Part shown: positions 1 through 64,000 of the stretch, piece by piece
How the letters are laid out: the number at the start of each line of letters is the position of its first letter
Numbering within the stretch: the stretch's first letter is position 1
NCBI GenBank assembly: GCA_045837725.1
Contig: JBEWZL010000151.1
Coordinates: 62,001 to 126,000, forward strand
Origin: Vermamoeba vermiformis
Taxonomy: Eukaryota
Direction: 5' to 3'
Length of the DNA: 64,000 nt
Translations under genes and position numbers: made by a program
The notes under the pieces: model-generated
The model's input: the letters and a program-made list of their open reading frames with translations, nothing else
Databases searched by the model: none
What the model was told of the DNA's origin: nothing

Positions 1-2869
1 TCCGTTCTTGATCCAACAATTCATCATTTCAGCGATATTTTTTCCCGAAATTTCGCTTAAGACTTGCCAGAGGTCCTCAGTGGTCACGTGCCCGAACTTG
101 TGTTTGTTCATGAACCGTTGAAGAGCCAAAAATAATTTGTCCTCACCGATGTAACTTGCTAACATTCTGATGCACGACGCTGCCTTTCCGTAGCTAATAA
201 TAGAACAGTATTAATATAAGACCCATATCTATGTCATATAATATCACTATCGCTTAAAAAAATTGCAAATAAATTAATTTTTTGGATCTGTTTTTTCGGA
301 TCGGATCTGGATCTTACCTAATCGAGTCAAAAATGTCATGAATGTCACGTGATCTCGGCACAAACATTTGAATAGGATGACTTTGCTGTCCTTCGTCCAA
401 TTTGAGTGCCATGGAATAAATCTCCGTCAAAAAGTGTTGGTCGTAGTGCCACTCGGGGAAGAAATTGCGCACCAAATAGTACTCCTATAATAAGAATAAT
501 ATTAACATCTTTTCTAACTAATGCACATCATAATATATTATTACAATTGACAAATTAATTGTTGATCATTAGCAGACTGTTTTAAGAAAAAATTTTAATT
601 CAGTCTTCCAGATCTAGTAATTGCGAAAAATAATTTGCATTAAATAAAACTAAGATGACATGGATATTGAGTATATTATAAGTCTAGTACTTACGATCCA
701 ACGAGCAAATCCCTCTTTGAGATACAAGTACTGCCATTCACTAATCGCCACTAAATTTCCGAACCATTGATGACCGACTTCGTGGAACACCAATCTTAAA
801 TAGTAATATATTAATAAGGAAACTTATAATGAAATATAACCATAATTATATAATAGAATTCGTGGCTGAACGAGATCCAGATCTGGATCCGATTGCGGAT
901 CTGCTACTTTGACGAGTATAAGCACGTTTGTATAATAACGTACCTTGCAATGCGTTGTTTGCGTGCAAAAGTAGTGTCGTGCGCGACCAAGAAATGCGAG
1001 TTCAAGAAGAACAAACAGCCCCAGTTCTCCATGCCCAGGCAGTCAATGTCGTTCAAGCCAACAATGTCTAACTTCTTCAACGGGAAACCGACCTTGAGAT
1101 CTATCAACAATACAATTAAGATATAGCCTTATACAGTAATAGAAGTAAATTTCCATCGTGTAAAAGAAAAAAATAAATATTCCGACAGCGGTCAGGTGGT
1201 TGTTTCGAGACACTGTACGTACTTGTGCTGTAAAATTTGACAGCTTTTTCAGCCATTTCCATGACCCAGCTGCCGTCCTCAACACGACCAGGGGGTGTAT
1301 ACTAAATAAGGAAATCAGTCAGGCGTTCGATCACCGCGTCAAAGTGACTACTTACAACTCGCAACGGGAACTTATCTTCAACTTGTTGTCCTTCAAAGTT
1401 ACTAAAATACGAAATTGATTATTACGGAGATCTTATTATAACAAAAAAATCTATTATTAAAGCGTTAATTCGCTTCAAACAGATCCGTGAAAAAAATTGT
1501 GTCAAACCAAAGTGACACTTCACTGCTTTTCTTCAAAATGAACCAAAATACGATCAAATTTGTCATATTAGGCAGCTATAATAATATTGTCGATAAGACT
1601 TACGTATAAGTGAAAGAGATGTGTCGTTCCAAGTACTCAAAGTAGCCGGCAATAAAGCACAACAAGTACGTGCACATGGACGGTGTCCAATCAAACACGA
1701 CTTTCTTTTTCAATTCAACAGCGCTCTCTTCTTGTTCAGGCAATGTTTCTTGTGTGAAAAATGTCTCGTGGGTCAATTCTTCGCTGATGATCGGTGTGTT
1801 GCTGATAGCCGTAAGTTTTTTGTTCACGAGCAAGGTAAGCTGAAAAGCAATCTTAGTATCATTTCCAAATATAGTAATAACATCTACAAATATGCTGATT
1901 ATAATAAATGAAGTGTCCTTGACCGGATGTACTTCCGGAAAAAATTGGATCTTGGCACAATAAATCCATGCAATATTTTCGTTTGCAGATTTGAGTCCAA
2001 ATTAGGTAATTTGTTTTAGGGTTACCTGAAATTCCGCTCTAAAGCAGGGCTCGTCAAAGCACGGGAAAACTCTGCGACAATCGGTCGGTTCAAAGTGCGT
2101 TGCGAAGCCAAAAGGCTCGCTATAATGTTCAGCAACACTATCGGGAATATTGTTCAACAATTCTAACTCGAAAATAGCTGGAAATAAAAAAGAAAAAAAT
2201 TAGCTAAAATAAAATAAAAAAATTCTGCGCGCTACTGAGCGATTTATAGTCATTAAAATATGATATTATAATTTGATATGCTATATTCTTAATATTTAAG
2301 CCATAAATCTCGTTACCTCGTGGTTTCTCGCGATAAATAGGCGAAGTAAATTCAAGAGTCAGAGATGCGCCATGAACAACAGGAATAGTGCGACCAAAAT
2401 CAAGAATAAATACTTCGTGGTCTTCATTATGCGTGTGAGATATTAAAGGCCAGATCTAACGCAATGATTAATATTGAGAAAAATTCTTGTCTTGTTCTCA
2501 CTTCAGAAAACGTTTAAAATTATATACGGGATACTAATATACTATATTGATGTTCTAAAAAATTAAGTGGTATTATTAGCCCTCCCTCTATTCATTAAAC
2601 TTATAAACTGAAAAGATCCGAAATAATTCCATAAATACTAGAAAATTTACCTCGTTATTCACTGATAATGAGCCACTGTGCAATTCTATACCGAGGCCAT
2701 GCAGCTTAATAAAATTTTGTTTGGCTTCGAGCACGTCAATGTCAATCTGAACTCTTCCTTTTACAGATTTGCCAACGACAGGCTCTAGCGTCAATCTGTA
2801 CTTGCGAGGCACAATATGTGCATCGAGGTCGTTTCTAATCTTGATAAGACCTTGTGGTTGTGGTTCCAT
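1..2869 (-). CDS. M1 family zinc aminopeptidase (puromycin-sensitive/APN-like), multi-exon, 3' end outside window
   Basis: Spliced exons give [27 protein letters not shown] (GAMEN variant), [12 protein letters not shown]...LKEGFA (HEXXH-x18-E) and [14 protein letters not shown] at 2869. Confidence 0.93.
874..889. repeat. Perfect 16-bp palindrome GATCCAGATCTGGATC within an intronic GATC cluster
   Basis: Read directly; part of cluster 872-902 in an aminopeptidase intron. Confidence 0.85.
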
Positions 2870-3223
2870 GTCTGGCGAATTGAAAAAATGAAAGAAAAAT
2901 CCGCCTTTTTGGTTTTTTTGAACGGACAAAAGATCTGATAATATTATATTATTAGAGATATATTATTTAACGATTCAGATTGTTGGCGAGAATTGATAAC
3001 CAAGGCGAGTATTGCAAGAATTGAAAAAGATCTGACGCTACAAAGTTGCTTGCCAAGTCAAAACGAGAAAACAAAGGCCGTAAAACGAAAAAAATCTATT
3101 TTTAATTAATTATTTGTACAAATAAGGTGATATTAATGCACATCAGAGACAATAAATAACAATGCATGAAGAATACGCTATCCTCGCTACAAAACTATCA
3201 GATCTACTTCCTTATGCGATCGT

Positions 3224-7741
<4,518 letters not shown>

Positions 7742-8374: not shown

Positions 8375-10646
8375 TTACCTCAACTCTTCGGACAATTTCT
8401 CGGCTGATTTTTCAGCTTGTTTTTTAATTTCATCTTTCATCATCTCTAATATAGACTCCATGACGATATTGCCAAGCTTATTCTCCTTAGCCAACTTGTA
8501 CATGACGTTAATGAAGCTCATGCCCATAACACCGGTAACAGTTGCCGCAACAGCTGTAGCAAATGAAACGTGAGTATTTCGTTCATGAACGCGGCATTCA
8601 GTGAAAAAGTACGTACTTGCTGAAATGCCCGAGGCAACGAGATTGACACCAGGAATGAGTTTGAAAATGTTCAGTACGATCAAGGTGCCTCGACTTGCCG
8701 CAGCAGCGCCACCAGTGCCTAAAATAACACCAGCGACAGCAGCCAATAAGGAACGATCGATGGATGCGCCGAAGAGTGCGGTAATAGCTGCCATCATGGC
8801 TGTTTGTAACGAGGCCAAAACCGCGATATCAGCGAACGGACTAAAACGTTGAATTAGAAAAACTAAAGCTCTAAATGCTATTAATATAACTTACATTGGA
8901 TTAGCTCCAGCGGCCGCAGCAGCAGCCATGAAAGAGACGACAACAGCCTTCGATCTGTACACGCGCTTGTTCAAATCTTCTTCGCTTAATTTATCCGCCT
9001 GTAAAGTATAGAAATTAAATTATACTGCCAATTATACCACAAAAGATTTAAATTAAGCAAAATTTGAATTATTCCAAATTAGGCAAGTGCGCGTACCGTC
9101 TTGACTAACTCATCCACGATTTCCTTAGACTTAACCGCTAGCGCAGCAATAGTACGGGCAAGTTGAGGCAAGCCAAATGAAGGAATTTCAAAGCCCACAG
9201 TCGTTTTGTTGCCGCGAGACATGACCGCGCACAGATCTGCGCTCAGAGGCAACTTCACCTCGCTCAGGGCCTGTTTGAATTCTTCAAAATTGGTAAGCGC
9301 TTGCAGCATCACTGGCACGACGGGGGCGTAAGCACTAAACGCCTTGATGTACTCGATATCCGTTGGTTCTAAGCGCGCGGTACTGGCAGGGAAGCAGTAG
9401 ATCACAGCATTGACCACGGGCTTTGGATTGTTAGGATTGATGCCATCAGTCAAACGATCGACCAATGATTGGTACTTCGCTTCTCTCTTTTCAGCGTCGT
9501 ATTCTAAGCCCGGAGTATCGATCAAGCTGATCTTGACTGTTCGAGGCACTTGATCTGGCGCTGTTATCTTGTATTCTCGTGACTTCTCCGATATTTCAGT
9601 AGTCACTATAATAAAGATCATAATTAGTGTCAATGAGCAAATAAGTGGTAGAAACACGTTGCTAGAAGCCACCCAGCCGCATCCAAAAAAAAAAGAATTT
9701 TAGCTTACCATGGCTAGTCTTGCTGATGCCCTCGCTTAGTCGTTCTTCGGGCGCGAGTCTAAGCATTTCATTTACGAAGCAGCTCTTGCCAATGCCGTTT
9801 CGTCCAACAATCATGATCGCGTGTTCTTTTACATCCGCCGGCAAGTTCTCGGCGAGGATTAAAGCGGGTGCCTTAAGCTGATCTACTACCTCTTGAGAGG
9901 CATAATCCACATATTGAGCTAAAAGAATAAATTATTATTAGCCTTTCGTAACAAAGAATTGGATGGGTTTGATATGTACCTTGGAACTCTTTTGGTTGTT
10001 GAGCAACCCATTGTCTTAATGCGCTTATAAAATTTTGACGCTCTTCTGCGCTAAGAATCTCGCCTGCAGAAAGCACTTGTTGAGCTGGAATTGGACCTTC
10101 AGGATTTGAATGAACCAAAGCCAAAAAGAATTTGTAATCTTCGTCAGTTACTGCCTCTGCATTTTTCCATAACCCGAGGAATGTAGGAAGCGCTGCTTGA
10201 ATTGTATTTACAAACCCTAGCAAACAAATCTGTTAATTTTCGTTTCAACTTTCGACCAAGACTTGCAATTTTTACAATATAATATTAATATCGATTTTAG
10301 TGGTGTAGTCTTTTCAAATTTCGAAGCATCGAAATAAAATTTATGAAAAGAATAATAATTGGAGGTCAAATCTGAAATTACCTTCTGTTGCCAACGCTTT
10401 GGTTAATAGTCGGAAAAACCGCACTCTGTTGTTGGTTATAAACATATTGGTTGATATTTTAACGAGTGCTGTGAGTGTTCGGGTCCACAGAGCTTCGTTG
10501 GATGGGATTTGTAAAAATGCAGAAGATTCGCAAATGTTGAGGATCTTGCTCTCCATCTCGAGGTACTTTTGATCTATATTAGTCTTTTCAATATACTCCC
10601 CGAGGACTTTGTCCAATTCTTCAATCTTTTTTGCGTCATCTCCCAT
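8375..10646 (-). CDS. P-loop GTPase with N-terminal helical region and C-terminal DUF697/YcjF-like Gly/Ala-rich hydrophobic domain
   Basis: G1 IVGRNGIGKS, G3 LIDTPGL; C-terminus AAAAAGANP-PFADIAVLASLQTAM...KLIPGV resembles bacterial GTPase-DUF697 proteins. The last codons could instead be a splice donor, so the 3' end is uncertain. Confidence 0.8.
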
Positions 10647-10963
10647 CTTCCACGTTTGATAAACTTCAGCCCAAATTTTCGAGTTGGGTTTTAACTATAC
10701 ACAAAATATACAATATATTACAAGTAGTGGTAGTATGAAGAATTGATTTGATTACAAACAGCGGCCAAAATTTCGTTCAGGGACATCTAGCCACGTGCGC
10801 GCAAAAAAATAAGAATTAATTGAAGGGAAACGAAAGAGTGTTTCCGAATTCCATACGAATGACAAAAACTACGTGAGCAACATATTCATTTTATATTAGA
10901 CATACCTACCCTTGAAGAATTGAATTGTTAACAACACATCCAAGTCGGACAGCCTAAATTCCA

Positions 10964-13854
10964 ATGGAGAAGAAAAGCTACAATAATCAGCAAGCGCCTG
11001 ATATAAAACTAGCTGTAACGGATGATCAGTTTAATTGGAACGAGCAGGAAAAGCTCGCAAAGAAAGATCCAGAACAGTTTATGTATGGCGCGTTCAATTT
11101 ACTGCAGCAAGTTTCCCAAAGGTATGTATAATTATTGTCGTTCGTATAGTACCCAAATTTCAAATTTAAACAATTTTTGAATTTTTTTGGTGATTTTCTT
11201 TTAGGATGGAGCAAAAAGAATAGACTTTTATTAACCGCGTACTTTATCTTTCGTAGCACTGGTATCAAAGTCCAACAACCAGAAATAGTTATTGTAGGAG
11301 GTCAATCAGACGGAAAATCTTCCTTAGTTGAAGCAATAGTCGGATTTAAGTTCAACTTCATTGCAGTCGGTACGTGGCATTACTTTATCACATTTTCGCG
11401 AAACTAATTCTATTGCAGAAATGGGAACTCGCGTTCCGCTCGTTTTGCAATTAACACACGCTCCTGAGTGCGTTGAACCTCGATGCGTTTTTGCTGGCGA
11501 ATCCAAAGTCATTCCCGTAGCAAGTCTCGCAGCAGAGATTAAAGAACGTACTCTTGCTATTACTGGCGGAGATGAAACAGTCAGCTCTAGGCCTATTATC
11601 TTAACAGTTAAGTTCAAGTATAGTCCGAACTTGACCGTAATCGATACGCCGGGCTTTGTTGGCTTAAATAGAACTAAAAGTACGTTATATTGTCAGTATA
11701 TTATTTTTAATATCTTGCTTATATTTAATTCATAGCTGAAATGACTATGGAAGCAATTGATAGAATGGTTGAAGATCTTGTGACGGGTGAAAACAATCAT
11801 CGTATCATCGTTTGCTTAGAACAAGCAACGGTAAGTAACTATACTTGCACCTTATAATAAGAATACATCCGTTTTCTTTTTAAATGTTGGATGCACATCT
11901 GATCCTGTTTTTAGGTTGAATGGCGAAACCCTACAAAATCTCGCTTGTTCGTCGAAAAAGTTGATCCTACATTCAGCCGAACAGTAATGGTCATGACTAA
12001 GTTCGACAATAGATTAGCTCAAATCAAGACTCGTTACGAGCTCGATAAATATTTGTCGACTGGCGGGATCTTGAACCAAACTAAGCCTTTCTTCATTTGG
12101 TTGCCGCATTCTAAGAACGACTACGCTTCTATTAATGAGTATCAACTATCCATCAAGACCGAATACGACAAGATTCTCGGAAAAATGCGCGAGATCGGCT
12201 ACGACCCTTCGTAAGTACCTAGATCTAGCTCGACTGCGAATAATCAACGCTGAAATTAATATAATTATTATAGATTCGATCCACAAATCGGTATTTTCCA
12301 CTTGAAACAGAAGTTGCAAGCGATGTACAAGTCTTTGAATTTGAAGTACCTGGATCCGGTTATCAGCAGTGTGAGCAGCAAAGAACGAGAAGTCTCTAAG
12401 CAACTCGATCAAATTAACGCTAAAATTGCCTCGAGCAACAGCGTCAACATTAAGGCGAAGATTGTTTCAGTCGCCTCAAAGTTCTCTCTCATCGTCGAAA
12501 AGGTTATTGAAGGTAAGGACAATAAAGCATCATATTATATAATTGGATAATAATATATCTATGACACATATTGACAGCACTTGTTAGGTGAAACGAGTGG
12601 AGATCCGGATGCGAACGGGCAAACATTGGATGAAGAAAAAGTTGAAGCGGACTTCTCATGGGAAGCAGTGCCATGGAACAGATATGTTAACTTCGACCTA
12701 GTCCCAGATAAGGCATGTCGTGTCTACGGAGGCAAGCAGTACTCTCGGTTCATGAACGAAGTTGAAGTCGTGATCCGATCAATGGAGATGGGTCCTATCA
12801 GTCCTAACGAGATTGCTACTGCTCTTGGTATTCCTAGATCTCATTTTGTGCCGTCAGTAGGCCACGCTGTAAGTTAAATAGTCTTATTTTTGAATCGCGT
12901 ACTGGATCTGATCTCATTGGTTTTAGGCGAGCACGTTGGCTTTGAAGCACTTTAAGGCGTCTGTAAATAGCCTGTTGCCTCTTATCGCTCAAAGACTTCA
13001 ATATATCGCCAACAGAATGCTGCCAATCGTTCTGATTATCTTCGACAAAGAGAATCCAGATGCGATTGACGAGGCCATGAAGCGAGAGATCTCAACAGCC
13101 TTCGATGGGTAAGCACCATTAAAATACATTGAATTTATAGCTCTAACTATTTGTTTAGCCACGTACAGAAGACGATTGAGAAATGGCAAATGGTCGCTTA
13201 TGGATTGCTCGGCGGATCTTCAGACATGCTCACTACAGTCTCGCATATTGTAGATAGAAACGATGACGATATGTACGTACCGCTAAGCACTTGCTATAAT
13301 TCTATTTCTCTGAAATTTCAACTCAAAATTTTTATCAAGTTTATTTGGTACTAACAAATTCGTTCTTGCGTACAGAGAAAAGGACTTTGTATTGAATCCT
13401 AGCGAAGAACAAGTAGCAGCAAGAGTTAAGAAGGAAATGCAAGCGAAGAACAATTTGATCATCGATAGCTCCAAAGGCAACGACTACCAAACCATTTGTA
13501 AATACTCTTCGTTGATCTTCTCCAAGCTACGTACTCACTGGTTGAGATTGGTCACTGATGTTACTAACGCATTCTTCTTGAACTCTTTGTAAGTCAGATC
13601 CGATCCGTTACAAAAAAGTTCATTTTACTAATTCGCTTGTATTTAGCCGCCATGCTGTTAATGAATCGATCTCGATCAGCTTGTTGAACAAGAGCGATGA
13701 AGAACTCGAGATGCTCACAGCTGTTAATAGCAAGGTACTGAAACAGCAGAAAGAAGAGCTGGATGCGTTGAAAACAAAACTCTCCACGTTGAAGAGCTAC
13801 TTCTTGAGAATAAGAAGCGACTCTTCTATTTGGAAGGACGTAGTTGTAAATTAA
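10964..13854 (+). CDS. Dynamin-related protein, DRP5/ARC5/Dictyostelium Dlp class, multi-exon
   Basis: PEIVIVGGQSDGKSSLVEAIVGFKFN..EMGTRVPL, PNLTVIDTPGF, VMTKFDNRL and YGGKQYSR match the DRP5A-type GTPase domain; the splice junctions checked (first and last introns) are in frame; ATG 10964, TAA 13852-13854. Confidence 0.92.
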
Positions 13855-13978
13855 TAACACTAGCCATCAATAAAGCAATGTTAAATACATCCCGGCTCAG
13901 GTGCATCCAGACCTGTTCGGTACGTAAATTCAATTATTAAGTTCTTTAATAAAATAATATAATACTTTACAATATATT

Positions 13979-15605
13979 TCAATTTTGACGAGCATAAGGA
14001 AAGACTTTTGCGCGTAGCGGCGAGAAGTAAAAAGCTAATAATATAATTCCAACAATTAACGCAACCCCGCCAATAACAACTCCAATAATTAAACCAGTAT
14101 AATCTACTCCAGGCGGAACATTATCTTCAATACACTTAGTAATCGATACTGTTAAGGTCAATTGCGTGGGCGAAAAGTTCGGTTTAGCGTTCCACTCGTC
14201 ACATCCAGGCAAGTCATAATCGCTTTTAATCACAATCTCGTTGAAATCTCCATCACGACAAGCCAATTCCATTACAAGTACATCAATAACGCCGTTATTT
14301 AAGACTTGTACGGTAGATCCGTTTGACAATACTACAACTAATGTACCGTTCAAAGTAGCGCATCCGTTAATGGTTAAAACAACGCCATCATTAATGACCA
14401 AAGTTGAGTTCTCGTTCAATACTAGATCTCCTATTACTGTCGACGCGTTAACTTGCAAAATGTCAACGACAACAACGGTCTGGTAAGTCTTTCCTATTAT
14501 AGTCAATCCAAAAACTCTAACCATTCCATCCGCCGCTAAATAAAGTTCAGCGTAAGTATCGTTTGCGCGGTAAAATCCCAACGGCTCGTTTCTAAGTGTT
14601 GAAGCGTTAACTAGTACACCCAAATCTTTCGGAACCACTGCGACGGTGTTCGTTGCATCCCAAAGTGCTATCCAAACATTGCCAGTGATGTATATATACG
14701 CTAATAATAGCGTTGAGTTATCGCTGCCCATAGCAATCATATTGTACGACAGCAATCGGTTATTGTTTCCTGCAATTTTGTACGCACTTTGATTTGAAGG
14801 AATCGCTTGAATGAAGGTCTCATCTAAATAATTTTGATAGGCATAGTATAATATATTATCATACTCTATGAACCGCATATCCGCCGGCGAGTTCGTAATA
14901 GTGAAATTGAAGTCTTTCTGTAGATAGCTTGCTCTTCCATCGCCAGGAATATTGCCAAGGTCATTCGCGTTAAATCCATAAAATTTAACTTTTGCCGTGG
15001 ATCCGTCAACGTTGACTTCAGCAATCGACACGATATCTCGCTTTGAAATTACTCCGTAGATACTCGGTGGCATTGAAGAGTTGATAGTCAATGCGAGTAC
15101 TATTCCAGAGTTATCAAAGGAAGGTAAAAAACTAACGGAATCTGAGAGGACTCCAACGCCAAAAGTTTTTGAGCCAGCCACGGCAATTTTTCCGATAAAA
15201 GCAAAGTCGTAAACGACACCAACTGTGCTGTTCACGAATATTTGTACTTTTGTGTCTTGAAATGCTATAATACTGTACCGGAAAGGGCTCGCCATGCAGT
15301 CTACTACAGCGAAATTGTTGGGAAATGTTCCGCCATACATTGCTTGGCCACGGATTGCATTAAGATAATCGGCTTGAGTTATCCAAATCTCTGCATACCC
15401 TTCAACGTCGCATATTTGTAGGTTTGCTGGTCCGGTGATATTATAGGGCAGGTAATCCGTGGTTAATTCTGAAAATACCAAATTTTCTGCTCCCGTTACA
15501 AAAAAAATAATTAGTTTTTATTTTGTTTTTGGTATTTTAACTCCGCGTACCAAAATAACCGCCGTAGCATGAGTATATCAGTAGAATTAAGAAAAATAGT
15601 TTCAT
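13979..15605 (-). CDS. Type I membrane glycoprotein, paralog A (signal exon plus large exon)
   Basis: Exon 1 MKLFFLILLIYSCYG (15551-15605); intron 15487-15550; many N-x-S/T sites; TM LIIGVVIGGVALIVGIILLAFYF; tail SPLRAKVFPYARQN. Confidence 0.88.
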
Positions 15606-15937
15606 ATTTTCTTGGATGTTGACAAAGTACGGGCAACTCCGCAGATCGCTTTCCTTGCGATAGTACCAGTTTATGTAGTTTATATAATACAATTGTGTTA
15701 AAATTACCACAATGTGTTGTGCTTCGTATTTACAGAAGAAAATTATCAGGTCGACCTAAATTTGGATGCCGGTACAAATTTGGCTGGACCAGCGATATAG
15801 GTATTTTTTCTCTATAATGCGATTTAACAAGTAATTAATTTAATACTTGAACGACAATGGCCCTATAGATAGACATCAATACTGCGATCTCCGTTCAGTT
15901 CAGATTCGCCAACGAAAAATATAGGAACTGTTTCAAC

Positions 15938-16008
15938 ATGCACTTACGAGGCTTCTAATCATTTGTATTACACCGCTGTAGTGTACGGCGATCAAACATA
16001 CTTTTTAG
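15938..16008 (+). pseudogene. Orphan, frameshifted copy of exon 1 of membrane paralog C
   Basis: Near-identical to 20462-20534 but 2 nt shorter (ATG CAC TTA CGA GGC TTC TAA); keeps the GTAAGC donor; no downstream exon. Confidence 0.85.
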
Positions 16009-16427
16009 GTAAGCTGGGAGGTTCGTCTTCCGGTACAATTTTTCGGAATTTAATATTAATTTATTTATTTATTTTTTTCTCATAATAATCGTTAATTTGC
16101 CTCGATGACCTCAATGCAACGACCTTCCTTAGTACATTGCACAATGAGACACTTCCAAACTCCTGATCTCATCCGCGCAAAGTCTGAAATATCAAGATAT
16201 ATTAATATTTCGTTTCTTCAAGGATCGAAGGATGGTAACTGGTTGTATTTGCTGTTGCGAACGATGGGAGTTACAAACTCCGTAGTAATAATTGGGATCT
16301 CTGCGGTACGGGAGCTACGGGACCAGCTCCGTCTGGGGAGGATTTAAAAAATGCCGGAAAATACATTTTTCGGCTGCGCTCGGTCAAAATTGGCTGGAAA
16401 AAACCGGGATTTTTCTCGGCAGCAGTC

Positions 16428-16471
16428 TACTGCCTGGAAAAAAGCGAAATTTCATTTTTTTCCAGGCAGTA
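16428..16471. repeat. Perfect 16-bp inverted repeat
   Basis: TACTGCCTGGAAAAAA / TTTTTTCCAGGCAGTA with a 12-nt loop; a third arm copy lies at about 16488-16504. Confidence 0.85.
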
Positions 16472-16950
16472 CCGTACATTTTGGCTTTTTTTTCCAGGCA
16501 CTACCTTATTAGGAAGGTGATGTTCGTGCGTGGCTATGTGTTTGCTTGAACTCGTTACTCGTTCAAGCAAACAAATAGCAAACAGTACAATAGGAACGAC
16601 TGGTTTGCGTCGACGAAATTCATTTTGGTGGTTGAAATCAAAAAAATGGATGCGAATCCACGTACTGGATTAGCTTCTCGCGCGCCGAAAAAATATCATT
16701 CCAGACTCACCTCCACCTTTACTGCTTTTCCGCTCGTTACCGGCTCGGACTACGTCTCGCCGGTAATTTTCTCGCTGGGAAAAGCAGTAAATTTTGGAGG
16801 TTCGTCGGAAAATTACTATTAATTTATTTATTTCCTCCTCTTTCGGGACAGAAGCACTAGTTCCGCTCCGCCTGGGGAGCATAAAACTGTTCCAGAACGC
16901 GAACTTTAATTTATTATTATAAACTCAACCCTTTAACTACAACACTACAA

Positions 16951-17912
16951 ATGCAAACTTGGAGCGAAGCTGCAAAATACTACGAATCTGTGTCACGCCT
17001 AACAGTTCACTTTGCTGACAGAATGGTGGATCTGTTCAAGCAAGAACGTGCCAAAGGAAGATTTACCGGACAGATTAGACTTCTAGACGTAGCAACCGGT
17101 ACAGGCATTGTACCGCTATCATTTGTTAAGCATAATGAACTGGATTTGAGCGTTTTGGCGGTCGATCTGTCGGAGCAAATGGTGAAGATTGCAGAACAAA
17201 AAGCCTTAGAAATTAACGCAACGAATATATCTACAAAAGTTATGGACGGTCAAGTAAGTGTCGCATATTCCTAATTATAATTAAGGGTTAGCTAATATTT
17301 GATTTTAAGAACCTTTCGCTGGACAATGAAAGTTTTGACGTAAGCACAGATCTGTTTGGGCTTATTTTCTTCCCAGATAGACCAAAAGGTTTTAAGTACG
17401 TCTTATCTATATTTATCGTTTGTCGTATTAATCCGATTTGGCAGAGAAATGTGGCGCGTGTTGAAACCAAACGGTATGGCGCTTGTAGGCACATGGAAAT
17501 CTCTGAAAACCATCGACATTGCACAGCGTATTGCCGAACATTACAAATCATCGCCTCATCCGGAGATAGAAAAGATGCTTTCGCTGTCAGATCCGGATGT
17601 GTTGAAAAAAGTAAGATCTTGAAATCTCAAACCAGTTTTTATCTGAATTTAACTCATCGATATTTCCAGGAAATGACTGAAGCAGGGTTTAACCAGGTTA
17701 CTGTTGAAACTATAACGGTTAAGTGGCCCGTTGCCGACAAATCCCAGTTCGAACGCGTATTGACGCATATTCCGGTCTTTTGCCATAATTTTGACAAGCA
17801 ACAATTAGCCAAAGATCTTCCCGATATAATTGAACAAGTTATTCCAAACTACAAGACAGTTTCGTCGTTTGAATTGATTGCTACTGCCCACATTGCCTAT
17901 GGCTTCAAATAA
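16951..17912 (+). CDS. Class I SAM-dependent methyltransferase (UbiE/Methyltransf_11-like), 4 exons
   Basis: Motif I LLDVATGTG, VDLSEQMV, NESFDV..LFGLIFFPD, REMWRVLKPNG. Confidence 0.92.
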
Positions 17913-18030
17913 GCCTCTCATACGATGGTAGTGCAATCCAATTCACTTGTTATATATGTTTATACCCTAATAAAAATAATGGTGTTAAATCTGAATGCGC
18001 GCTAGTTTAATTTGCTATTATTAGTAACTA

Positions 18031-18464
18031 GAACGAAGTTGAAGTCGTGATCCGCTCTATGGAGATGGGTCCTATCAGATTGCTACTGCTCTTGGTATTC
18101 CCAGATCTCATTTTGTACCGTCAGTAGGCCACGCTGTAAGTTAAATAGTCTTATTCTAGAACCGCGTACTGGATCTGATCTCGTTGGTTTTAGGCAAGCA
18201 CGTTGGCTTTGAGAACTTTAAGGCATCTGTAAATAGCCTGTTGCCTCTTATTGCTCAAAGACTTCAATATATCGCCAACAGAATGCTGCCGATAGCTCTG
18301 TTTATCTTCGACAAAGAGAATCCAGATGCGATCGATGAGGCCGTGAAGAGCGATCTCAACAGCCTTCGATATTCTCCAAGCAACGTACTCATTGGTTGAG
18401 ATTGGTCACTAAAGCATTCCTCTTGAACTCTTTGTAAGTCAGATCCGATCCGTTACAAAAAGTT
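18031..18464 (+). pseudogene. Degenerate duplicated 3' fragment of the dynamin gene
   Basis: Matches 12754-13107 joined to about 13517-13620, including introns; carries a 10-bp frameshifting deletion and an internal deletion of about 0.4 kb. Confidence 0.92.
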
Positions 18465-18487
18465 TCAAACAGGACGTTTATAACAAT

Positions 18488-20138
18488 TTACTTTATTTGA
18501 ATTTTTACGAGATTAAGGATAGACTTTTGCTCAGCGTAACGTCGCCGGCTACAATAAAAAGCTAATAAAATAATTCCCGTAATTAAAGCCGCACCTCCAA
18601 TAGTAACTCCAATAATCATGCCAGTATAATCTACTCCAGGTGGAATATTATCTTCAAGACACCTAATAATCGATACTGTTAAGGTCAATTGCGTCGGTGA
18701 ATAGTTCGGCTTGGCGCTCCATTCGTCACATCCAGGCAAATCATATTCACTTTTAATCACAATCTCGTTGAAATCTCCATCACGACAAGCTAATTCCAGT
18801 ACAAGTACATTTATAGCGCCGTTGTTTAAGACTTGTTCCGTAGTTTCGTTCGACAATACTATGATTAATGTTCCGTTCAAAGTAGCGCATCCTTTGATAG
18901 TCAAAACAGCGCCGTCATTAATGACCAATGTTGAGTTCGCGTTCAATACTAGATTTCCTATGACCGTCGACACATTAACTTGCAAAATATCAACGACAAC
19001 AACGGTCTGGTAAGTTCCTGTGATGCTCAATCCAAAAACTCTAACCATTCCATCCGCCGCTAAATAAAGTTCAGCGTAAGTATCATTTGCACGGTAAAGT
19101 CCCAATGGTTGGTTTCTAAGCGTTGAAGTGTCAACTTGTACACCCAAATCTTTCGGAACCACTCCGACGGCGTTCGTTGCGTCCCAGAGTGCTATTCCAA
19201 CATCACCAGTGGTGAATATGTACGCTAATAATAGCGTTGAGTTGTCGCTGCCCATAGCAATCATATTGTACGACAGCAATCGGTCGTTGCTTCCTGTAAT
19301 TTTGTAATCACCGCTGTGATTGGACGGAATTGCTTGAATGAATCCCTCATCCAAATAAGTTTGATAGGCATAGTATAAGATATTATCGTACTCTATGAAC
19401 CACATATCCGTCGGCGAGTTTGTAATAGTGAAATTGAAGTCTTTCTGTAGATAACTTGCTCTTCCATCGCCAGGAATATTGCCAAGGTCATTTGCGTCAA
19501 ATCCATAAAATTTGACTTTTGCTGTGGATCCGTCAACGGTGACTTCAGCAATCGACACGATATCTCGCTTTGAAATTACTCCGTAAATACTCGGTGGCTG
19601 GGAAGAGTCGATAGGCAATGCGAGTACTATTCCAGAGTTATCAAAGGAAGGTAATAAACTAACGGAATTTTCGAGGACTCCGATGCCAAAAGTTTTTGAG
19701 CCAGCCACCGCAATTTTTCCAATAACAGTAAAAGTTAAGTCGTATGTTGTAACCAATGTGCTGTTCACGTATAATTGAACATCTGTGTTTTGAAATGCTA
19801 TAAGACTGAACCGCAGAGGGCTCGCCATGCAGTCGATTACAGCAAAATTGCTCGCTATGGCCACAGCTCCGCTGAACATTCCTTCGGCACGGATTGTATG
19901 AAAAACGTCGGCTTGAGTTATCCAAATCTCGGCATGCCCTTCAACATCGCAGATTTGCAGGTCAGCTGGTGCGATGATAGTATAGGGAAAGTAATCGGTG
20001 GTTAATTCTGAAAATACCAAATCTTCTGCTCCGTTAGAAATAATTAGTTTTTATTTTTATTTTTGTACTTTAAATCCGCTTACCAAAATTCCCGCCGTAG
20101 CATGACTGTATCAGTATAATAAACAAAAACAGTTTCAT
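18488..20138 (-). CDS. Type I membrane glycoprotein, paralog B (recent duplicate of A with frameshifted cytosolic tail)
   Basis: Exon 1 MKLFLFIILIQSCYG; ectodomain and TM closely similar to A; tail altered to CSRRRYAEQKSILNLVKIQIK. Confidence 0.85.
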
Positions 20139-20461
20139 ATTTTCTTGGATGTAGACACGTACTGGCAATTCCGCAGATCGCTTTCCTTGCGATAGATACC
20201 AGTTTACGAAATTAAATATAATACAATTGTGGTAGATTACAACAAGGGGATTCGTTAACAGAAGTTAATTATTAGAAATCTAAATTTGGAATGACCGGTA
20301 CAAATTTGGACCCGCTAACTTAAGTATTTTTTTCGCTAGAATTCGACTTTAACTCAATTAATTTAATGCCCGAACAACAATGACACAGTAGATAGACATC
20401 AATACTGCGATCTCCGGTTCAGTTCAGATTCGCCAACAAAAATTATAGGAACTGTTTCAAT

Positions 20462-22270
20462 ATGCACTTACGAGGGCTTCTAATCATTTGTATATACACC
20501 GTTGTAGTGTACGGCGATCAAGCATACTCTTTAGGTAAGCTGGCAGGTTTGTCTTCCGGTACAATTTTTCGGCCGAATTAAAAAATAAGTATTTTGTTAA
20601 ATTTATTCTCGATTTCAGTTATCGTTATTTTATATAAAATTTGTTAATTAATTGATTGATTTTAAATTATTAATTACTAATATCATACAACAGACCAAAA
20701 TATTACAACAATACCCAATTACGAATTATTCAAATTTCAAGTAAGCCCTTCGTTCAATCTTCAAAGCTGCGCGTATCCTAATGGCGACGTAATGGTCTAT
20801 GTTTCTGGCTCAGGAATAATTTATGGAATTTTTCGAGATGCGGATGCGCAAAGTATTATCCGGTTGTACGCAATTTCGTATAATGGAACTGACATAGTAG
20901 CCGACTGTCATACATTGGGCACACTTCAGATGATGTACCTTTCATCAAATAAGTTAATCTACAGTCTACTTACCAGTGCGAATCCGGTTACGGTTAATCT
21001 ACAACCCGGCGTGCAATTCAAGAAACTTTTAAATATGAACACTATGGACCAGACATATGTAGCAGCTATTGCTTCCAATGGAACTTCGGGGTCTATCTAT
21101 CAAAGCGATGCGACGTTTTTGGCTATTTTGCAATTATCCGCAGAAGAATTTTTCAACGTCGATTCGTCGAATTCCAAATATGGAAAAGCTGTCACCATCG
21201 CAGTCGACCCGTCAGCTCAAACTCCAACTTTGACAGTATACCAATGTAATATGACATTTTTAACCTGCCTTTCAACGACAGTAGAGTACCCCAACTTGGC
21301 TGGGAAATTTCCCAGTAGAAATTCATTTGCAGATTACGACAACGTTATGTATTGGTCATTTTTGGACTCTAATACGACATATTTGCATATTCAAAGTGTA
21401 CCACCATCATCGAACATTTCTTTCACGTACGAAACACCCTTAGTACAACAAACAATAGTCGCGATTGGATCTGACAACCACATCGTAATCTTTTGCGGAT
21501 TATCTCCGAACGGAGATATACTTTTAGGCACGTGGGACACGAGCCGTTCAGTGAACGAAGTCAACGTCACTTTTGTGGGATTTTGGGGCGCCGATTTACT
21601 GGGTGGCAATGATTACGCAATCTCATTTGTCAGAATTGGTTGGGATACAGTCCAATTATCATATGTAGATAATATGTTGCATGGATTGATTATTAAGTAC
21701 TCTGGCAGTGGATTGAATTTCACGGAAAACTGGCCGGATGAGATCCAGCCTTCAACAAATATTACCATAAATGGAAACCAAACCTTCTTAGTCAACCAAT
21801 CAATAACGATAGATACTCTAGTAGTCAGCCAAAATTCAACGTTAGTCGTACAAGAAGGAGTTGTGATTACTGTTACTGGATGCGCAGATCTAGCTGGAAC
21901 ACTTCGCGTTATTTTATCAAATGGAACTATTATAGAGGCCAAAGATAATACTGAAATCGAGTTTTTGGTGCTAAACGCGACGTGCAGATCCGGCGAATTC
22001 GAATCCGTTGAAACGAGTACAAATTACGATCTGCAGCCCTGCGAAAAATTAATATCAAAACCTAATTATAGCCCAACTCAAGTAACTATATTAGTATCAG
22101 TCGATGATAGCTCATGCAATATAAGTCAGGATCCGTCGTACGATCAAACAGCACTTATTATTGGCGTTTGTGTAGCTGGCGCAGCCGTATTAATTGTTGG
22201 TATATTATTACTAGCTTTTTATTATTCACCTCTGCGGGCTAAAGTATTTCCTTATGCAAAACAAAAGTAA
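20462..22270 (+). CDS. Type I membrane glycoprotein, paralog C (divergent)
   Basis: Exon 1 MHLRGLLIICIYTVVVYGDQAYSL (20462-20534); intron 20535-20693 splices in frame to the ORF; shares GCAxLxGTL, PNYSPTQ, the TM and SPLRAKVFPYA with A. Confidence 0.88.
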
Positions 22271-42388: not shown

Positions 42389-42645
42389 GTAATTCAAACT
42401 ACTCCGTACTTGTGGCTCTTGATAGAAAAATTTCTCGAAGCGGATCTGAGACTTGGGTTCATGATCTGATCCTATGGAATGTGAAATCTTCTTCGAGTTG
42501 CTATTAACAAGTTTTTATTCATTTTTCAATCTTCAATAAATAAAACATTCGTTCTAACGGTTACTAATAAACATCACTCGCGTAAATTTGCTGCCGATAT
42601 CTGACGTGAAAAAAACATTGACACGTGTCAAATCACATGTCGCTG

Positions 42646-45869: not shown

Positions 45870-48506
45870 CTATTTTCTCAGCTTGTAGAATCTGAAAGCG
45901 GCAAAAGCACCAGCAGCAGCGAGCAAAGCAACTCCAGCGGCTTTGATTAAAAATTTAATTTGCTCTTCGCGCTCTTCTCGTGCAGCCATCTCTTCAACAG
46001 CGTCGTAGGTCGTGTCGAACTCGGTCATACTAAGCTCGGTCATTAAAGCAAACATGAAATCGTCGGTCTTGGCGTGCACTTTAATCGTGGCAAATTCGTC
46101 GTAGGGCGTTCTTTGCAGATTGACGATGAATAACTAAATAAAGAAATTAGTATAGGCGGATCAACATAGCGAGCTTAGAATAAACTGCAACACATCAAAG
46201 TGATGGTATATGGTTCATACAAATATTTTTAAGATCGATTAAACCATATTAGAAGGTTTAGGCGATTAAATGAAAGATGACAGATCTGGATCCGTGGATG
46301 TGGTCATGTTTGACTTACTTTTCCTCCATTAACAAGAGCTTTGTCAGGTAATGAAGCAGCAGGCTGCACGTTCATGCTCGTTCCCATCACTAAGGCAACA
46401 TCACTAATGCGCGCGTTCTTCACTGCTGGGTCCCACTCACGTGGCGGAACGGTCTCAGTAAAGTGCACAATAGTGTCCTTCAATTTTCCGCCACAAGCAC
46501 AATATCGTCCTAAAATTATAGTGAGTGATAAGTATTAACTATATTTAAGTAAGAGTATGATATAGACATACCAGTAAAGTGGCTCCAACGATCTTCTCGG
46601 CTGGTCAAAGTATCAAATGATCGCAAATATTCTCGCTCGCAGTCGCCGCAAATCTCACGGTAGCTGTAACCATTAACGTTAAAATTAAGTCTTAAAGACG
46701 AAGTGAGTTTATATTTGCTTACCAGTTGCCGTGCATTTCGGAAATTTTGTTGGCGGGAACACCTGACTTGCGGTGCAAGCCATCAAGATTAGTCGATGAG
46801 ATGAACTTCACAATATCTTTTCGCATAAGCTCCATGAGGGCATAGTGCGCGTAAGTAGGTTTAGCATCGCCTAACTCGACTTTGCCAAACACAGCAGCGC
46901 CTTTAGATCTCATCGTCCAAACTCCCTTAGGACCACGATAATCTGTTTCATATAATTATTAACATCTCGAATGGCCATAAAAAGTAGTTATATTACCAGG
47001 AAGTGAGGCAGCGGTTGAAATTCCGGCACCAGTGTACACTACGGTATGTTTTGAAGCGCGTAGCGCATCCGCGATCTGCTTGACCTTTTCTTGGAAGACG
47101 TGTGGAGGATCCTCGAACTCCTCAATTTCTTTTTCGTAAAGCTCGCCTACGATGAATAATGGTTAGACTAATGCGTGGTAGAACGAGCATCATTTTCAGG
47201 AAATTTCGTCAAAGTCAGTTTAAGTCATGATTTTTTTTTAAGTTAAGTCACGCCAGTACGCGATGATTTAACAACGCGTATACGAGCATAATATAATCTA
47301 TTTCTTACCGAGCTTTTTATCGGGGAAGTCATCGAAGACTGCATTGTTCTCTTCCGCTACACGCATTTCTTCGAGCACTGTTTCAGCGGTGCGTGCGTAC
47401 GAAGGGTTTTGTTTGTCTTCGAGCTGTGCAGTACGTAATTCTTTGCCTTCTTCCAAGAAACTGACCAGAATTTCGTCGCCTACAATGGTTATTAAGAATT
47501 TCAATTGGATTGCACTATGCTTAAGCATCTATATTTAATTGCTATGGTAGTATGTATTTAGTATATTTACCTTGAGTATCAGGAACATTGAAGGATTTAA
47601 TCAGATCTACAGGCAAAATGCGATGCTTGTTTGGATCAGTGCCTCTACGAATAACGGTTCTTTGGACCTTATTGTCCTTGCAGTTCTTCCAATAGAGTCT
47701 ATCAAAAAGATATATCACGTTAAACTAAAATACGATAACAGATCTAGCAGCTGAACGTACCTGAAGTTTTCAATCAACGTTTCGGAGTCAGAAAATTGAA
47801 TAGTAATTCCTAAATATAGAAATTTGGTAAGTACGAATGATAAAAGAAATATCATGCGAATATTCATTCTCAAGAGTGCAAGGTACGCTACGTAGCGAAC
47901 GGATGTCGATCGACTTAAAATTTAAAATTGGTCTTCTGAAAGGAATGAATTACCTTCGCAGTTATAGAATCGCAATATACGCACATCAACCTCGTCGAAG
48001 AGGATAGTGCAGTTTTTAACGTTGACAAATTCCGCAGTTCGAGAGCCGATAACCGCTGAATCAAGAGTTTGAAGCTGACAGTCCTCGCAATTGTTGTATA
48101 CGACCTTCTTAATCTTCTGATTCATATTAATGGAAAGTTCGCTCTTCTTGACGTTCGTAATAAAGAGGATGTGGTTGTATCTGGTGTTCGACACCTTTCT
48201 GGACCCATTTTCCAAGTTTTCCTGGGGAAAAAATTACTATTAATTTTATTCATAATATTTCATAATGATATTTGAGCATTCAAACCAGAAGAAGCGAATT
48301 TTCATTGTTGCTGAAATTAAATTGGAATTCAAAAATTGTTGTTAATATCAAAGCGCAATTATGAAAAAACAATACGAATTTAATAAACGAACACGAAATT
48401 TAGCGAAAGAAAAGTCGGCCTTAGATAGTTCAAAGACCAGACCAAGATCTAAACTCCTTACAATTTTGACCAAGCGATCGGGAATGTAGACTTTAGGATG
48501 TTCCAT
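45870..48506 (-). CDS. Class IV (SIRT6/7-like) sirtuin with N-terminal C-CAP/cofactor-C-like beta-helix and C-terminal tail anchor
   Basis: [45 protein letters not shown], Cys pairs, LKDTIVHF, MGTSMNVQPAASLP, IVNLQRTPYD; terminal AAGVALLAAAGAFAAFRFYKLRK. Confidence 0.88.
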
Positions 48507-48800: not shown

Positions 48801-50720
48801 ATGTGGGCCTTAAAGAGTACTTTTGAATCGATCAAGACGAAGATCAGTGGATCGAATAACAATAATACCGAAGAAAATGCACCAAAAGAGACAGATCCAG
48901 AAATCATAAAAAAACAGGAAGAAGCTAGCAAGCGTAGGAAGGAAATGGTAAAGTTTGTAAGTGCAGATCATGTCATTGAAAATTAATTAGATTTTTTCTC
49001 ATTAAATATTTTTCTTAGGGTCTCACCAACATTCTCGCATTCGGCGTGAGTCATATAACTAAGGGGCACGTCCCAAGAGGTAAATTAATGATAGTGTTGC
49101 AATTAGTATATCCGTAAAAGAAATAATTGCGATCAGATCTAACTTTCTATTTTAGAAGCTGTCAAGAATGCGATAGAAGTAGGTTGGGATGCTACAGAGC
49201 TTACGATAGAAACAAGTAAGAATATGATCTTGCTGACGTGGTTAAACACGCGCATAAATTATTCTTACGTGGCAGATCGGGATCTGAACTTATACGCAAA
49301 TTTTTAGGAAAGGAAGTCAACGAAGTCAAGCTATTTTTAGCTAAACAAGACGTGGAGTTCAATGACTTGCGATTCTTCCAACTTGCAGAGCTATGCGCTT
49401 GGCTCTCTTATCACGCTTACGAACCAAAAGACGAATCTGACGCGATGCCGGTTATGTTCAATGAAAAGGTCTCGTTGAACTTTAAATATAAAGAAGTGCT
49501 CAAGTTAATGGACAAGCACGTGTTTTGGTTCGTAGCGCAAGATAAGACGAGAAACATCGTGTACATTGTGTTCAGAGGCACGAGCGTGGCTGGAGATGTC
49601 GTAATAGACCTATACGCTGATCTTCATGCTGTAAGTACTCTATAACAAACGTGTTTATACATACTATTATGGGTGGCAAGTCTATTGTTATTAGTAATTT
49701 TTAACCGAGATCCGCTATACGGACGGTTTTAATAAGTAGTAGTTTGCGCTTTATGTCCATTGAATAATTCGAGCTTTATTACAGGATGATATAGTTAAAG
49801 ATTATATGGCTCATTCAGGCATCTATCAATCTGTTCATAAAGAACTGGATGCGATCAAAGAAGCGATCAAAAACTGCGATGTTAACGAGAAGACTTACTT
49901 CGTGCTGACCGGACATTCGCTTGGCGGAGGATTAGCGACAATGTTGTATACTTACCTGAAGACTAAGAGCGAATACCAAAACAACCGAATGATCGTAATA
50001 ACTTTTGGCGCGCCTTTGGTTTTGGCTCCGAATGATAATGGTACTAAATATACACCATACAATATTAAATATAACAGTTATTTAGTTATATTTCGATGGT
50101 GCATATTAGACGAGCGATCATTAAGTTAATTTTTGTAGGTTGGCCCGAGACACTTCAAGCGATCTCAAAGGACGTCCATAACTTCGTACACAACGCTGAT
50201 ATTATTCCTCGTGTTCTAGGCAACGAGAATGTCAAGTTATTGCCAATGATAGTTGGGGTAAGCACTACCATACCGAGTTTGACACGTGTCAACATGTCAC
50301 TTAACACAGATCCGTGTTCTAACCGAAGCATTTTTTCTTTATAGTTGTTAAAGAAGACTGTTGGCGAATCAGGTGCCAATATGCTATTAGAAGGCCTGTC
50401 TATGAAGGGCGAAAAGTTTGAAGAAAGATTAGGAAAGTACCGACCGTACGGCGAGATCTACTTGCTTTATGGCCAAGACAAAGTACTTCGCGCATCAACT
50501 GACGAAGAAAAACGAAAGATTTTATCGCTTCCTGCGGTGGTACGTCATTTTTTATATCATTTTAGTTTGCCCGACAGAGCTGATCGAGATTTTTTCTCAG
50601 TTGTGTTTTGAAGTTCTTACGCAGCCTAAGAAGGTCTTCGAACATCATGGAATAGGCTTATATTTGGAGTTTCTTAAAGCGACAGTTGTTAGAGAAAAAT
50701 TGAACAGCAACAAAAGCTGA
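48801..50720 (+). CDS. Class 3 lipase (alpha/beta hydrolase), multi-exon
   Basis: YIVFRGT, AHSGIY, VLTGHSLGGGLA, ITFGAP, FVHNADIIPRV, and a C-terminal HHGI His. Confidence 0.92.
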
Positions 50721-54419: not shown

Positions 54420-57025
<2,606 letters not shown>

Positions 57026-58864: not shown

Positions 58865-61511
<2,647 letters not shown>

Positions 61512-62265: not shown

Positions 62266-62437
62266 TCACGTGGGACAATACACCCAAATCATAAATTCGA
62301 AATCACCAAAAATGGTAATCTGATAACATACTGCCCAACAATTCGTAAGATTCATTCATTTTAGTACACTACGATTTACTATTACATACAAATTGAGGCT
62401 AATATTACAATGAGGTTGATCAAAATAAACGTTTTTG

Positions 62438-64000
62438 TTACAAGTTGATCGATTTAAGAAAACCAGATGCGATGTTTTTGTACCTCCAAATATCACCTTC
62501 GAGGCGCTTAAACTTCAATCCCTTTAAGTTCTTAAAGTCCTTCATCTTCACAATCTCAATATCAAACACGATCTTCTCGGAGGTCGGATCCGATGCGTTG
62601 TTGAGAAGTGTCATTTTGAACTCGTACTTTGACACTTTGTCGCATTGAAGTGAGCACTTTTGAGCAGCTGAAATGATCTTCTTTTTGATCTCTTTCGTCG
62701 ACTTTGATGACGTCGTGTCGCACTTGAACGACGACGACAGTTTGAAATTTCGTTGCTCGGAGTCAAAATTTTGACTGGCTTGGCCTTCACTTGCAGCAAC
62801 ATTCGACGAGTTATTCAGTGAACGGACAGTTTGTTTCGGGCTCTCTTCATGAATCTTGTTCATCGTCCAAAGGCCGGACGGATCTCGATCCAAATACGCG
62901 TCAAAATTGATACTTTCGCCAGACGACGCGGTTGAGGTGCCAGAGATCGTGTTACGTTTAGCTTTTTTATCAGTAATTCTCCTCTTCATAAGCTTCTTTT
63001 GTGTGGCTTTACTGCTCTTAGTAATGTCGTTGATGATCTGATCCAGTTGTGCTTCGAATTTGTCCATCAAATTTTTGGCGTCCTGTTTGCCCTCCGCGAC
63101 AGCTTTTGCAAAGTCTCGTTCGCCCAAACTGAATTACCATATTTAGTATAGGTCCCGAGTACTCTTAAGGTACGTATATTATACTGACCTATTCTTTTTC
63201 TGTGAGTCTCGGAGGTGTCTCCGAGTGTGCACAACGGTCTCGGATAAAATTTCTTCGTTGGAAAAACTTCGTTTTAGCAACGGAGGTTGCAACACGGATG
63301 AAGGCTCGCTACTCGCTTTAGAACTATTCAGTTTGCTTATAGTAGGTGCTCTGATGCGACGACTTGGTGATAACGGTCTTCTACTTAAGCACAACTGATA
63401 CGCGGTGACAATTTGTTTGTTGTTTTTGTTCTTCAAAATATCACGGCGATTCGCTTGAGTATCGTCAAAGCCCAATGCAACGACTTCACGCATGATTTGT
63501 TCGTCGATTTGAGTCACGTGCTTGAATACTGGCACGTATGTCTCTGGTGGATTGCGATGCAACTTCAAGATCCAAGGATGAACGCGGATCTCGCTCAATG
63601 TTATTCTTTTCTTCGGATCTATTGCCAACATCCTCGTAATTAAATCTTTAAGCTCTAAAAACGATTATTAGTACTTAATTTTTGATTCAAAACACAGAAT
63701 TTTTAGCGTCGGAAATCTAAATTTTACCTTTTGAAACTTCAACGTCAAACTGAAGTCCCTGGTTAATTCTTTTAAGCATTTCGTAGGGAGTATCAGCATC
63801 AAAAGGTTGTCGGCCATTAACCTGTAAAATATTGCATCAGATCGGTTGATCCGAAAAATTTCAGATGCGGAAGATCTACGACCCTAGATCTGACTTACCA
63901 AGCAGTACAATATGACACCAAGGGCATATATATCTACCGGAGGACCTCCATATACTTGCCCATGCAAAATTTCCGGAGCCGCTAATTAATATAAACGGAT
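62438..64000 (-). CDS. MARK/KIN1-like kinase K4 (5' part outside window)
   Basis: [24 protein letters not shown] region identical in protein to K1, KA1 core identical to K2. Confidence 0.92.

Follow-up and report, generated by a model that had tools for sequence, protein, structure and literature searches.

A 142-bp lattice of GATC and ATA/TAT words in Vermamoeba vermiformis DNA suggests a sequence-encoded chromatin repeat

The locus and its genes

We studied 64 kb of Vermamoeba vermiformis DNA (contig JBEWZL010000151.1, positions 62,001 to 126,000; the whole stretch is called the window below) in which the word GATC recurs with a period of about 142 bp across exons, introns and spacers, in antiphase with ATA/TAT words. 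The original prediction, made from the letters of the window, had described GATC clusters as a second, non-coding code. That observation is real, and it is larger and more structured than was seen then, the 142-bp period having been missed. The evidence for the lattice comes from the window and from one 5.1-kb locus of a related species (L001).

The window has a G+C content of 38.7%, shows no CpG depletion and represents a compact, intron-rich genome. The gene models come from a self-trained Markov finder of order 2, unable to model GATC, and were then curated by hand. For Vermamoeba, a G+C of 41.7% and 3.5 introns per gene have been published (PMC7125106), which the window, with 38.7% and the intron count given next, does not clearly match. 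The curated set, derived from sequence and not RNA-confirmed, comprises 25 genes and 132 GT-AG introns, with every frame open. It assigns 36046 bases of the window to coding sequence, 13809 to introns and 10414 to intergenic DNA; a further 3731 are uncertain and are excluded from class counts. For 21 of the 25 genes the start codon stands proxy for the start site, true start sites being unmapped. One gene served to validate the models:

10964..13854, plus strand: DRP5-like dynamin gene with 10 introns (DRP5/DlpC-like, highly divergent)

The dynamin model aligned gap-free with P0001, an independent protein, and the two agreed at 697 of 719 residues. Its closest named relatives belong to dictyostelids, Pelomyxa, Balamuthia and Naegleria, at an identity of only 31–34%, and a quick tree of 25 of the 120 listed rows left the query unplaced on a long branch. 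Pfam names were obtained for 9 of 13 exon pieces tested, and a search with a kinase exon returned 2 unnamed relatives.

GATC is enriched in introns, spacers and coding sequence

GATC was the most over-represented 4-mer of the window (412 against 263 expected), with a YRGATCYR-like consensus. CAGATC, AGATCC and CGGATC led the 6-mers, and CACGTGTC (17 against 0.7 expected) and CAGATCCG/CGGATCTG (23 against 1.4) led the 8-mers; the most enriched flanks were CG, TG and CA. Introns contained 106 copies, exceeding the composition-matched null proposed in the original prediction, whether shuffled by dinucleotides (36.1 ± 6.2) or trinucleotides (43.8 ± 5.8), and intergenic DNA contained 60 against 31–34 in shuffles. 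Coding sequence was enriched too, with 212 copies against 148.1 ± 9.4 under synonymous-codon shuffles, so GATC is not a non-coding code. The longer consensus YVGATCBR occurred 48 times in introns (4–6 in shuffles) and 47 times in coding sequence (20.6 in shuffles). Enrichment stood, and the statement that GATC pervades introns was too strong: 61 of the 132 introns carry the word and 71 do not.

GATC was present at all 13 places cited for it previously, 10 of them intronic and 3 intergenic under our gene models. The tandem arrangement proposed there is also genuine, with 15 and 13 pairs at distances of 5 and 6 nt (2.65 expected per distance), and 51 of 411 adjacent gaps were of 13 nt or less, against 25.6 expected. 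Both orientations occur as claimed, balanced in introns (17 AGATCC, 16 GGATCT) and without strand bias.

Along genes, GATC density was flat or rising, with no concentration in the 500 bp after the start codon; first introns carried 5.3 copies per kb, and sixth and later introns 8.7. The first 75 bp past stop codons were dense (18 in 1459 bp), and a mild peak lay 10–14 nt inside introns (12 sites, 18 per kb). GTAC was the second enriched palindromic 4-mer (252 copies, 1.42-fold); it consists partly of donor sites and shows no lattice phase.

A 142-bp period across gene boundaries

Distances between GATC pairs peaked near 140, 270, 410 and 560 bp, and the best period was 140–142 for GATC, RGATCY, YVGATCBR and GATCYR alike. 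None of 500 random placements that kept the words inside the same exon, intron or spacer reached the observed score; class-wise placements reached it in 0, 0 and 1 of 500 cases. The seven strongest of 136 4-mers in the 134–148 band were TATA, ATAT, ATAG, GATC, CGGA, ATAC and CAGA, with peaks at 140–142. TATA/ATAT ran in antiphase to GATCYR, with maxima 60–70, 200–220, 340–360 and 480 bp from GATCYR sites that persisted when the anchor was exonic. The antiphase score was 0.251, against a maximum of 0.124 among 500 circular shifts, and the period of this cross-signal was 142 bp (block bootstrap 141–143.5). Two features, neither assigned to a strand, summarize its extent:

1..64000: 142-bp lattice in which a GATCYR/CCG/A-tract phase alternates with an ATA/TAT phase; cross-signal positive in 16 of 16 4-kb blocks

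10500..25500: longest unbroken stretch of lattice by Fourier power and phase track, about 105 periods, best period 142.1 bp, genes on both strands

Over the second of these, one 142.1-bp sinusoid fits throughout, with a Fourier power of 82.9 (median 4.1). When a 4-mer model was trained on half of the window, cross-validation recovered 142 in the remaining half, and 11 of 12 held-out 5-kb chunks peaked at 134–148, the exception being a duplicated region at 15–20 kb. Pairs spanning promoters retained about half of the signal (0.106 against 0.20).

The lattice took no phase from gene structure: donors, acceptors and midpoints of the 132 introns were unphased (Rayleigh p 0.1–0.97), as were stop codons and start codons (0.76–0.83 for the latter). 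Four other sources of the period were rejected. Intron–exon spacing gave z values of 1.2 for donors and 2.4 for acceptors at 142; a general AT or TpA oscillation was set aside with other contexts near neutral; a generic SATS or GATG motif did not account for it; and masking 4336 duplicated bases left a period of 141.

Anatomy of one repeat

The phase of each position was estimated only from flanking sequence more than 71 bp away. On this scale ATA/TAT swung from 0.32 to 1.86, GATCYR from 2.2 to 0.2, CCG from 1.66 to 0.55 and AAAA from 1.32 to 0.76; the swing of CG was small (1.27 to 0.72). Each repeat contains a zone of about 60 bp that is enriched in YRGATCYR, CCG/CGG and A-tracts and from which ATA/TAT is purged; in the opposite zone ATA/TAT abounds. 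Within introns the observed/expected ratio of ATA was 0.33 in the GATC zone and 1.67 in the opposite zone, that of AAA 1.87 and 0.63, and ATA/TAT stood at 0.33–0.40 in the GATC zone. Of ten NATN contexts tested, GATC alone was strongly phased; AATC, AATT and CATC were weak, and AATG and CATG neutral. The neutrality of other TpA/ApT contexts means that the phase signal is not general AT-richness.

In the GATC half of the cycle, observed/expected GATC was 2.1 in exons, 4.1 in introns and 2.3 in intergenic DNA; in the other half it was 1.1, 1.1 and 1.2. The whole GATC excess is therefore confined to one half, which also contains 38 of the 51 tandem pairs and 11 of the 13 clusters named in the original prediction. 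Representative clusters, none with a strand, are:

297..314: GATC words in tandem at an intron's 5' end, in an aminopeptidase-like gene; +6 bp from lattice centre

872..902: intron cluster of four GATC, containing the 16-bp palindrome noted earlier, which we located at 874–889; -1 bp from lattice centre

13596..13607: tandem GATC in the last intron of the dynamin-like gene; retained in the duplicate copy near 18440

25381..25414: cluster of GATC in intergenic DNA; -2 bp from lattice centre

46281..46293: intronic tandem GATC at -36 bp, one of the 2 of 13 clusters just beyond the GATC half

63838..63891: kinase intron of 77 nt that carries four GATC; +3 bp from lattice centre

A second palindromic element, TGACACGTGTCA, with its half-site TGACACGTG, follows the same cycle. 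The original prediction had suggested that GATC works together with this element and had named three introns holding both GATC and TGACACGTG; each of the three does. The link stands, and its basis is a common phase and not shared introns: 9 of 9 TGACACGTG(TCA) sites fell on the GATC side of the cycle (mean cosine against the ATA phase -0.80, below -0.84 for 7 of 9). By flank phase, all 15 scored TGACACGTG half-sites lay within 14 bp of the lattice centre. ATA density around the nine TGACACGTG(TCA) sites swings about tenfold across three periods. TGACACGTG thus sits on the lattice axis, and YRGATCYR peaks 14–28 bp off it, the latter from small numbers. The elements, again without strand, are:

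4618..4629: intronic TGACACGTGTCA palindrome located at the lattice centre

6288..6299: intronic TGACACGTGTCA palindrome located at the lattice centre

23429..23440: intronic TGACACGTGTCA palindrome located at the lattice centre

36326..36334: partial TGACACGTG element, intergenic; at lattice centre

42619..42630: intergenic TGACACGTGTCA palindrome on the GATC side, with a cosine of -0.43

43654..43665: TGACACGTGTCA palindrome, intron; 140 bp, one lattice period, from the palindrome at 43794..43805

43794..43805: TGACACGTGTCA palindrome, same intron as the preceding one

50280..50291: intronic TGACACGTGTCA palindrome located at the lattice centre

59617..59628: intronic TGACACGTGTCA palindrome that fits the phase least well, with a cosine of -0.13

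The lattice in synonymous codons and duplicated genes

For the codon test, phase was taken from non-coding DNA alone and positions of low phase amplitude were dropped. GATC was realised at 55 of 120 synonymous opportunities in the GATC phase and at 21 of 113 in the opposite phase (p=1e-5). Between the same two phases, isoleucine was encoded by ATA in 5% vs 27% and by ATC in 53% vs 20%, and lysine by AAA in 71% vs 48%; codon choice for tyrosine, valine and leucine also shifts. We conclude that the lattice is written into synonymous codons and ignores the borders of exons, introns and genes. Among amino acids, tryptophan occurred 25 times in coding exons of the GATC phase and 8 times in the opposite phase, small numbers, and the others change little.

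Duplicated sequence offers modest support for selection on the GATC words. GATC was retained at 20 of 31 duplicate sites, compared with 72 of 172 for ten control 4-mers (p=0.03), and the overall substitution rate was alike in the two phases (0.122 vs 0.126). Codon differences between kinase paralogues track local phase in 55 of 89 pairs, which are non-independent.

Several duplications are present. A direct duplication of 2.2 kb (85% identity; 13958–16098 and 18479–20631) carries a gene for a secreted membrane protein and its divergent neighbour; the neighbour in the first copy appears truncated, and the lattice score is weakest here. The 3' end of the dynamin gene has a partial copy at 18031–18467 in which the intron GATC clusters are kept. 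Positions 51155–64000 hold four kinase paralogues whose C-terminal domain is a KA1 domain, with a counterpart at 433–2911 of L001. The kinase intron after the ...YCL exon has a GATC within 15 nt of its donor in all four paralogues and in L001, and in the four window kinases this donor lies at a like lattice phase, -8 to -33 bp.

L001 is the kinase locus of a related species, at 71% identity, from a scan of 594 metagenome stretches that yielded at least one such locus; none of 432 viral stretches scanned contained a related locus. GATC is again its top 4-mer (28 vs 19.3). We conclude that this species shares the code, with a less certain period.

Elsewhere in the window, a tandem pair of paralogous, intronless GNAT acetyltransferase genes lies at 35391–37060. 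A putative gene model at 45870–48221, whose first exon was not found, combines an N-terminal part with an unrelated, sirtuin-like region. About 800 bp of fairly high G+C at 26830–27660 have no gene model.

A chromatin repeat and the alternatives to it

A strand-symmetric, transcript-blind signal that repeats at 142 bp would point to DNA packaging. The original prediction had listed several functions for its second code; a code at the level of DNA survives, its non-coding character does not, and nucleosome-scale positioning is the option that best fits the period. It is very likely that the genome has a chromatin repeat near 142 bp, which is common to the account we propose and to two of its rivals, an inverted polarity and a neutral mutational footprint.

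In the account we propose, for and against which we hold the case evenly balanced, the genome would encode this repeat and the GATC zone would be its exposed, linker-like phase. The repeat unit would be a packaging particle, either a nucleosome holding less than 147 bp or one almost free of linker. The flexible ATA/TAT zone would lie on the particle. The GATC zone, where factor-like palindromes gather together with A-tracts, which are refractory to nucleosomes (PMC4617968), would for that reason be the exposed junction. By motif likeness, a putative GATA-type zinc finger would read YRGATCYR and a putative G-box-type factor would read the 12-mer TGACACGTGTCA, which we take to be of G-box type beyond its CACGTG label. 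Bound GATC words might then serve as spacers and so hold the array in register, which would place them under weak selection. More tentatively, the sequence suggests a near-crystalline 142-bp array, hard-wired in DNA for tens of kilobases irrespective of gene boundaries, and kept in register by GATC-bound proteins or methyl marks and not by phasing anchored at promoters.

Adenine methylation may occur at GATC in the exposed zone. N6-methyladenine (6mA) is compatible with the lattice because GATC fits the VATB context (PMC11258239), because depletion of TAT accompanies 6mA in early-diverging fungi (PMC12695648), and because a single methylated GATC disfavoured nucleosome assembly in vitro (PMC6245762).

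Several observations weigh against an exposed GATC zone in a regular 142-bp array. Pairs inside single long exons gave weak signals (GATC z 0.2, GATCYR 1.2, TATA 2.1), 2 of 8 quarter-window tests peaked at other periods, and GATCYR clusters numbered only 0.47 per period, so the majority of repeats lack the word. A 10-bp rotational dinucleotide signal was not significant (best 11 of 300 jitter nulls among 14 tests). At L001, 142 of 2000 nulls reached the score in a direct test at 142, and a score trained on the window, periodic there above 300 of 300 block shuffles, gave a broad peak with its best at 156. The canonical nucleosome core is 147 bp, so canonical nucleosomes would need unwrapping to fit 142 bp. 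The ATA zone of introns is more AT-rich (76%, against 64% in the GATC zone), and GATC is low in the 250 bp upstream of start codons (12 in 4245 bp), scarcest at 75–150 bp (2 in 1306 bp).

These last two points favour a serious if unlikely rival, in which the same selected lattice has the opposite polarity, with the GATC zone as nucleosome centre, palindromes on the dyad and YRGATCYR about 20 bp to either side, and the ATA/TAT zone as edge or linker. Its gravity comes from the AT-richness of the ATA zone, mirrored in relative G+C (1.10 in the GATC zone, 0.88 opposite), and the positions of TGACACGTG on the axis and YRGATCYR off it suit a dyad. It also matches the DNA-guided nucleosomes of Tetrahymena (PMC4617968) and the AT-rich nucleosome edges of Paramecium (10.1101/2021.08.05.455221), the latter being a further point against our placement of the linker. 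However, A-tracts are enriched in the GATC zone, the neutral TpA/ApT contexts argue against general AT-richness, and introns show no phase relation to the ATA zone.

Alternatively, the words could be functionless, a neutral footprint of long-fixed nucleosomes left by phase-dependent damage, methylation or repair that converts ATA into AAA, ATC or ATT in one zone and runs in the opposite direction in the other. We consider this doubtful. The antiphase signal does reduce to one trinucleotide, ATA/TAT, exchanged for AAA; the fungal loss of TAT with 6mA offers a parallel, and the phase-following codon differences of the kinase paralogues are what such a process would leave. Yet it explains neither the 8- and 12-bp words, with CAGATCCG and CACGTGTC far above expectation, nor the greater retention of GATC in duplicates, and it still requires chromatin with a 142-bp repeat that stays fixed for many kilobases.

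The remaining explanations dispense with chromatin. GATC could act as a plant-type enhancer, a set of GATA-factor sites downstream of the start whose copy number raises expression irrespective of chromatin spacing. The consensus fits YVGATCBR, and the plant motif is active in introns, untranslated regions and exons (PMC11525189), but the lack of 5' bias, the high density past stop codons and a period that crosses gene boundaries make this very improbable. Harder still to credit is a role in RNA, with palindromic words folding introns, as the original prediction had also proposed, or guiding splicing. Introns with two or more GATC were slightly better folded (mean z -0.64 in 24 introns, 4 of them below -2, against 0.05 in 70 introns with none), and the mild peak near donors would suit it; intron folding is nonetheless unsupported as a function because the shift is slight, strand bias is absent and exons, like spacers, show the same phased signal, and splice sites are unphased and most introns lack the word. 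An artefact, from ligation junctions of a GATC-cutting library or from repeats and paralogues, is largely excluded: duplicated segments exist and a 29-nt GATC pair peak is partly kinase paralogy, but GATCGATC was found only twice, frames are intact, the dynamin matches its independent protein, the period survives masking and GATC also leads the 4-mers of L001.

Comparison with known systems

The lattice is real and larger than was first noticed, and would be a form of sequence-encoded chromatin periodicity. No report of such a 142-bp lattice was found in the literature searched, with subscription papers and supplements outside its scope. Codon usage that depends on chromosomal phase has consequences, in this lineage, for predicting genes and for designing transgenes.

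The source study for periodic linker CG methylation in prasinophytes is reportedly that of Huff and Zilberman in 2014. Prasinophytes methylate CG periodically in linkers (10.1101/2025.02.07.637104, PMC12695648) and, like the window, have a palindromic methylatable word that is periodic through gene bodies in a compact genome. Unlike theirs, the word here is GATC, CG swinging little; its partner is ATA/TAT, and the pattern is known from sequence alone. AMT1-type 6mA is symmetric and falls at ApT in linkers, mostly the first linkers after the start (PMC12695648, PMC7145601, PMC11258239, PMC6245762). The window resembles it in the VATB fit of GATC and in the depletion of ATA/TAT in the GATC zone. 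It differs in that GATC is spread over whole genes with start codons unphased, and in that only GATC is strongly phased where AMT1-type 6mA uses many ApT contexts, although sequence phase need not mirror methylation.

The plant YVGATCBR motif, bound by GATA factors, is concentrated within 500 bp past the start site (PMC11525189). The window shares its near-identical palindromic consensus, its presence in introns and exons and its frequent multiple copies; here, in contrast, the copies are periodic and spread along genes and beyond stops. The match raises the possibility that the plant motif also acts through chromatin spacing.

In Paramecium the nucleosome repeat is 151 bp, among the smallest reported (10.1101/2021.08.05.455221), and in Dictyostelium it is about 169 bp for one gene set (PMC5378177). 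The window is like Paramecium in that the protist genome is compact and rich in introns and the repeat very short, and unlike it in that the 142 bp is shorter and is deduced from sequence instead of micrococcal nuclease digestion, and in that introns are not placed at the linker phase. If true, a 142-bp repeat would undercut 151 bp and imply unusual nucleosomes.

The degree to which DNA sequence sets nucleosome positions is a long-standing question. Downstream of the start site, DNA-guided nucleosomes in Tetrahymena follow a 3–4% oscillation in GC that measures about 200 bp (PMC4617968). As in Tetrahymena, a nucleosome-scale oscillation enters coding regions and biases codon usage; unlike Tetrahymena, the window uses specific words with 6- to 10-fold swings at 142 bp, in a lattice untied to start codons and coherent for 15 kb across genes. 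Two of the marks of a sequence-encoded nucleosome array are found here, a nucleosome-scale period (142 bp, below the 147-bp core) and codon choice that depends on phase, and the contrast between words is such that predicted positions can be read straight from the sequence.

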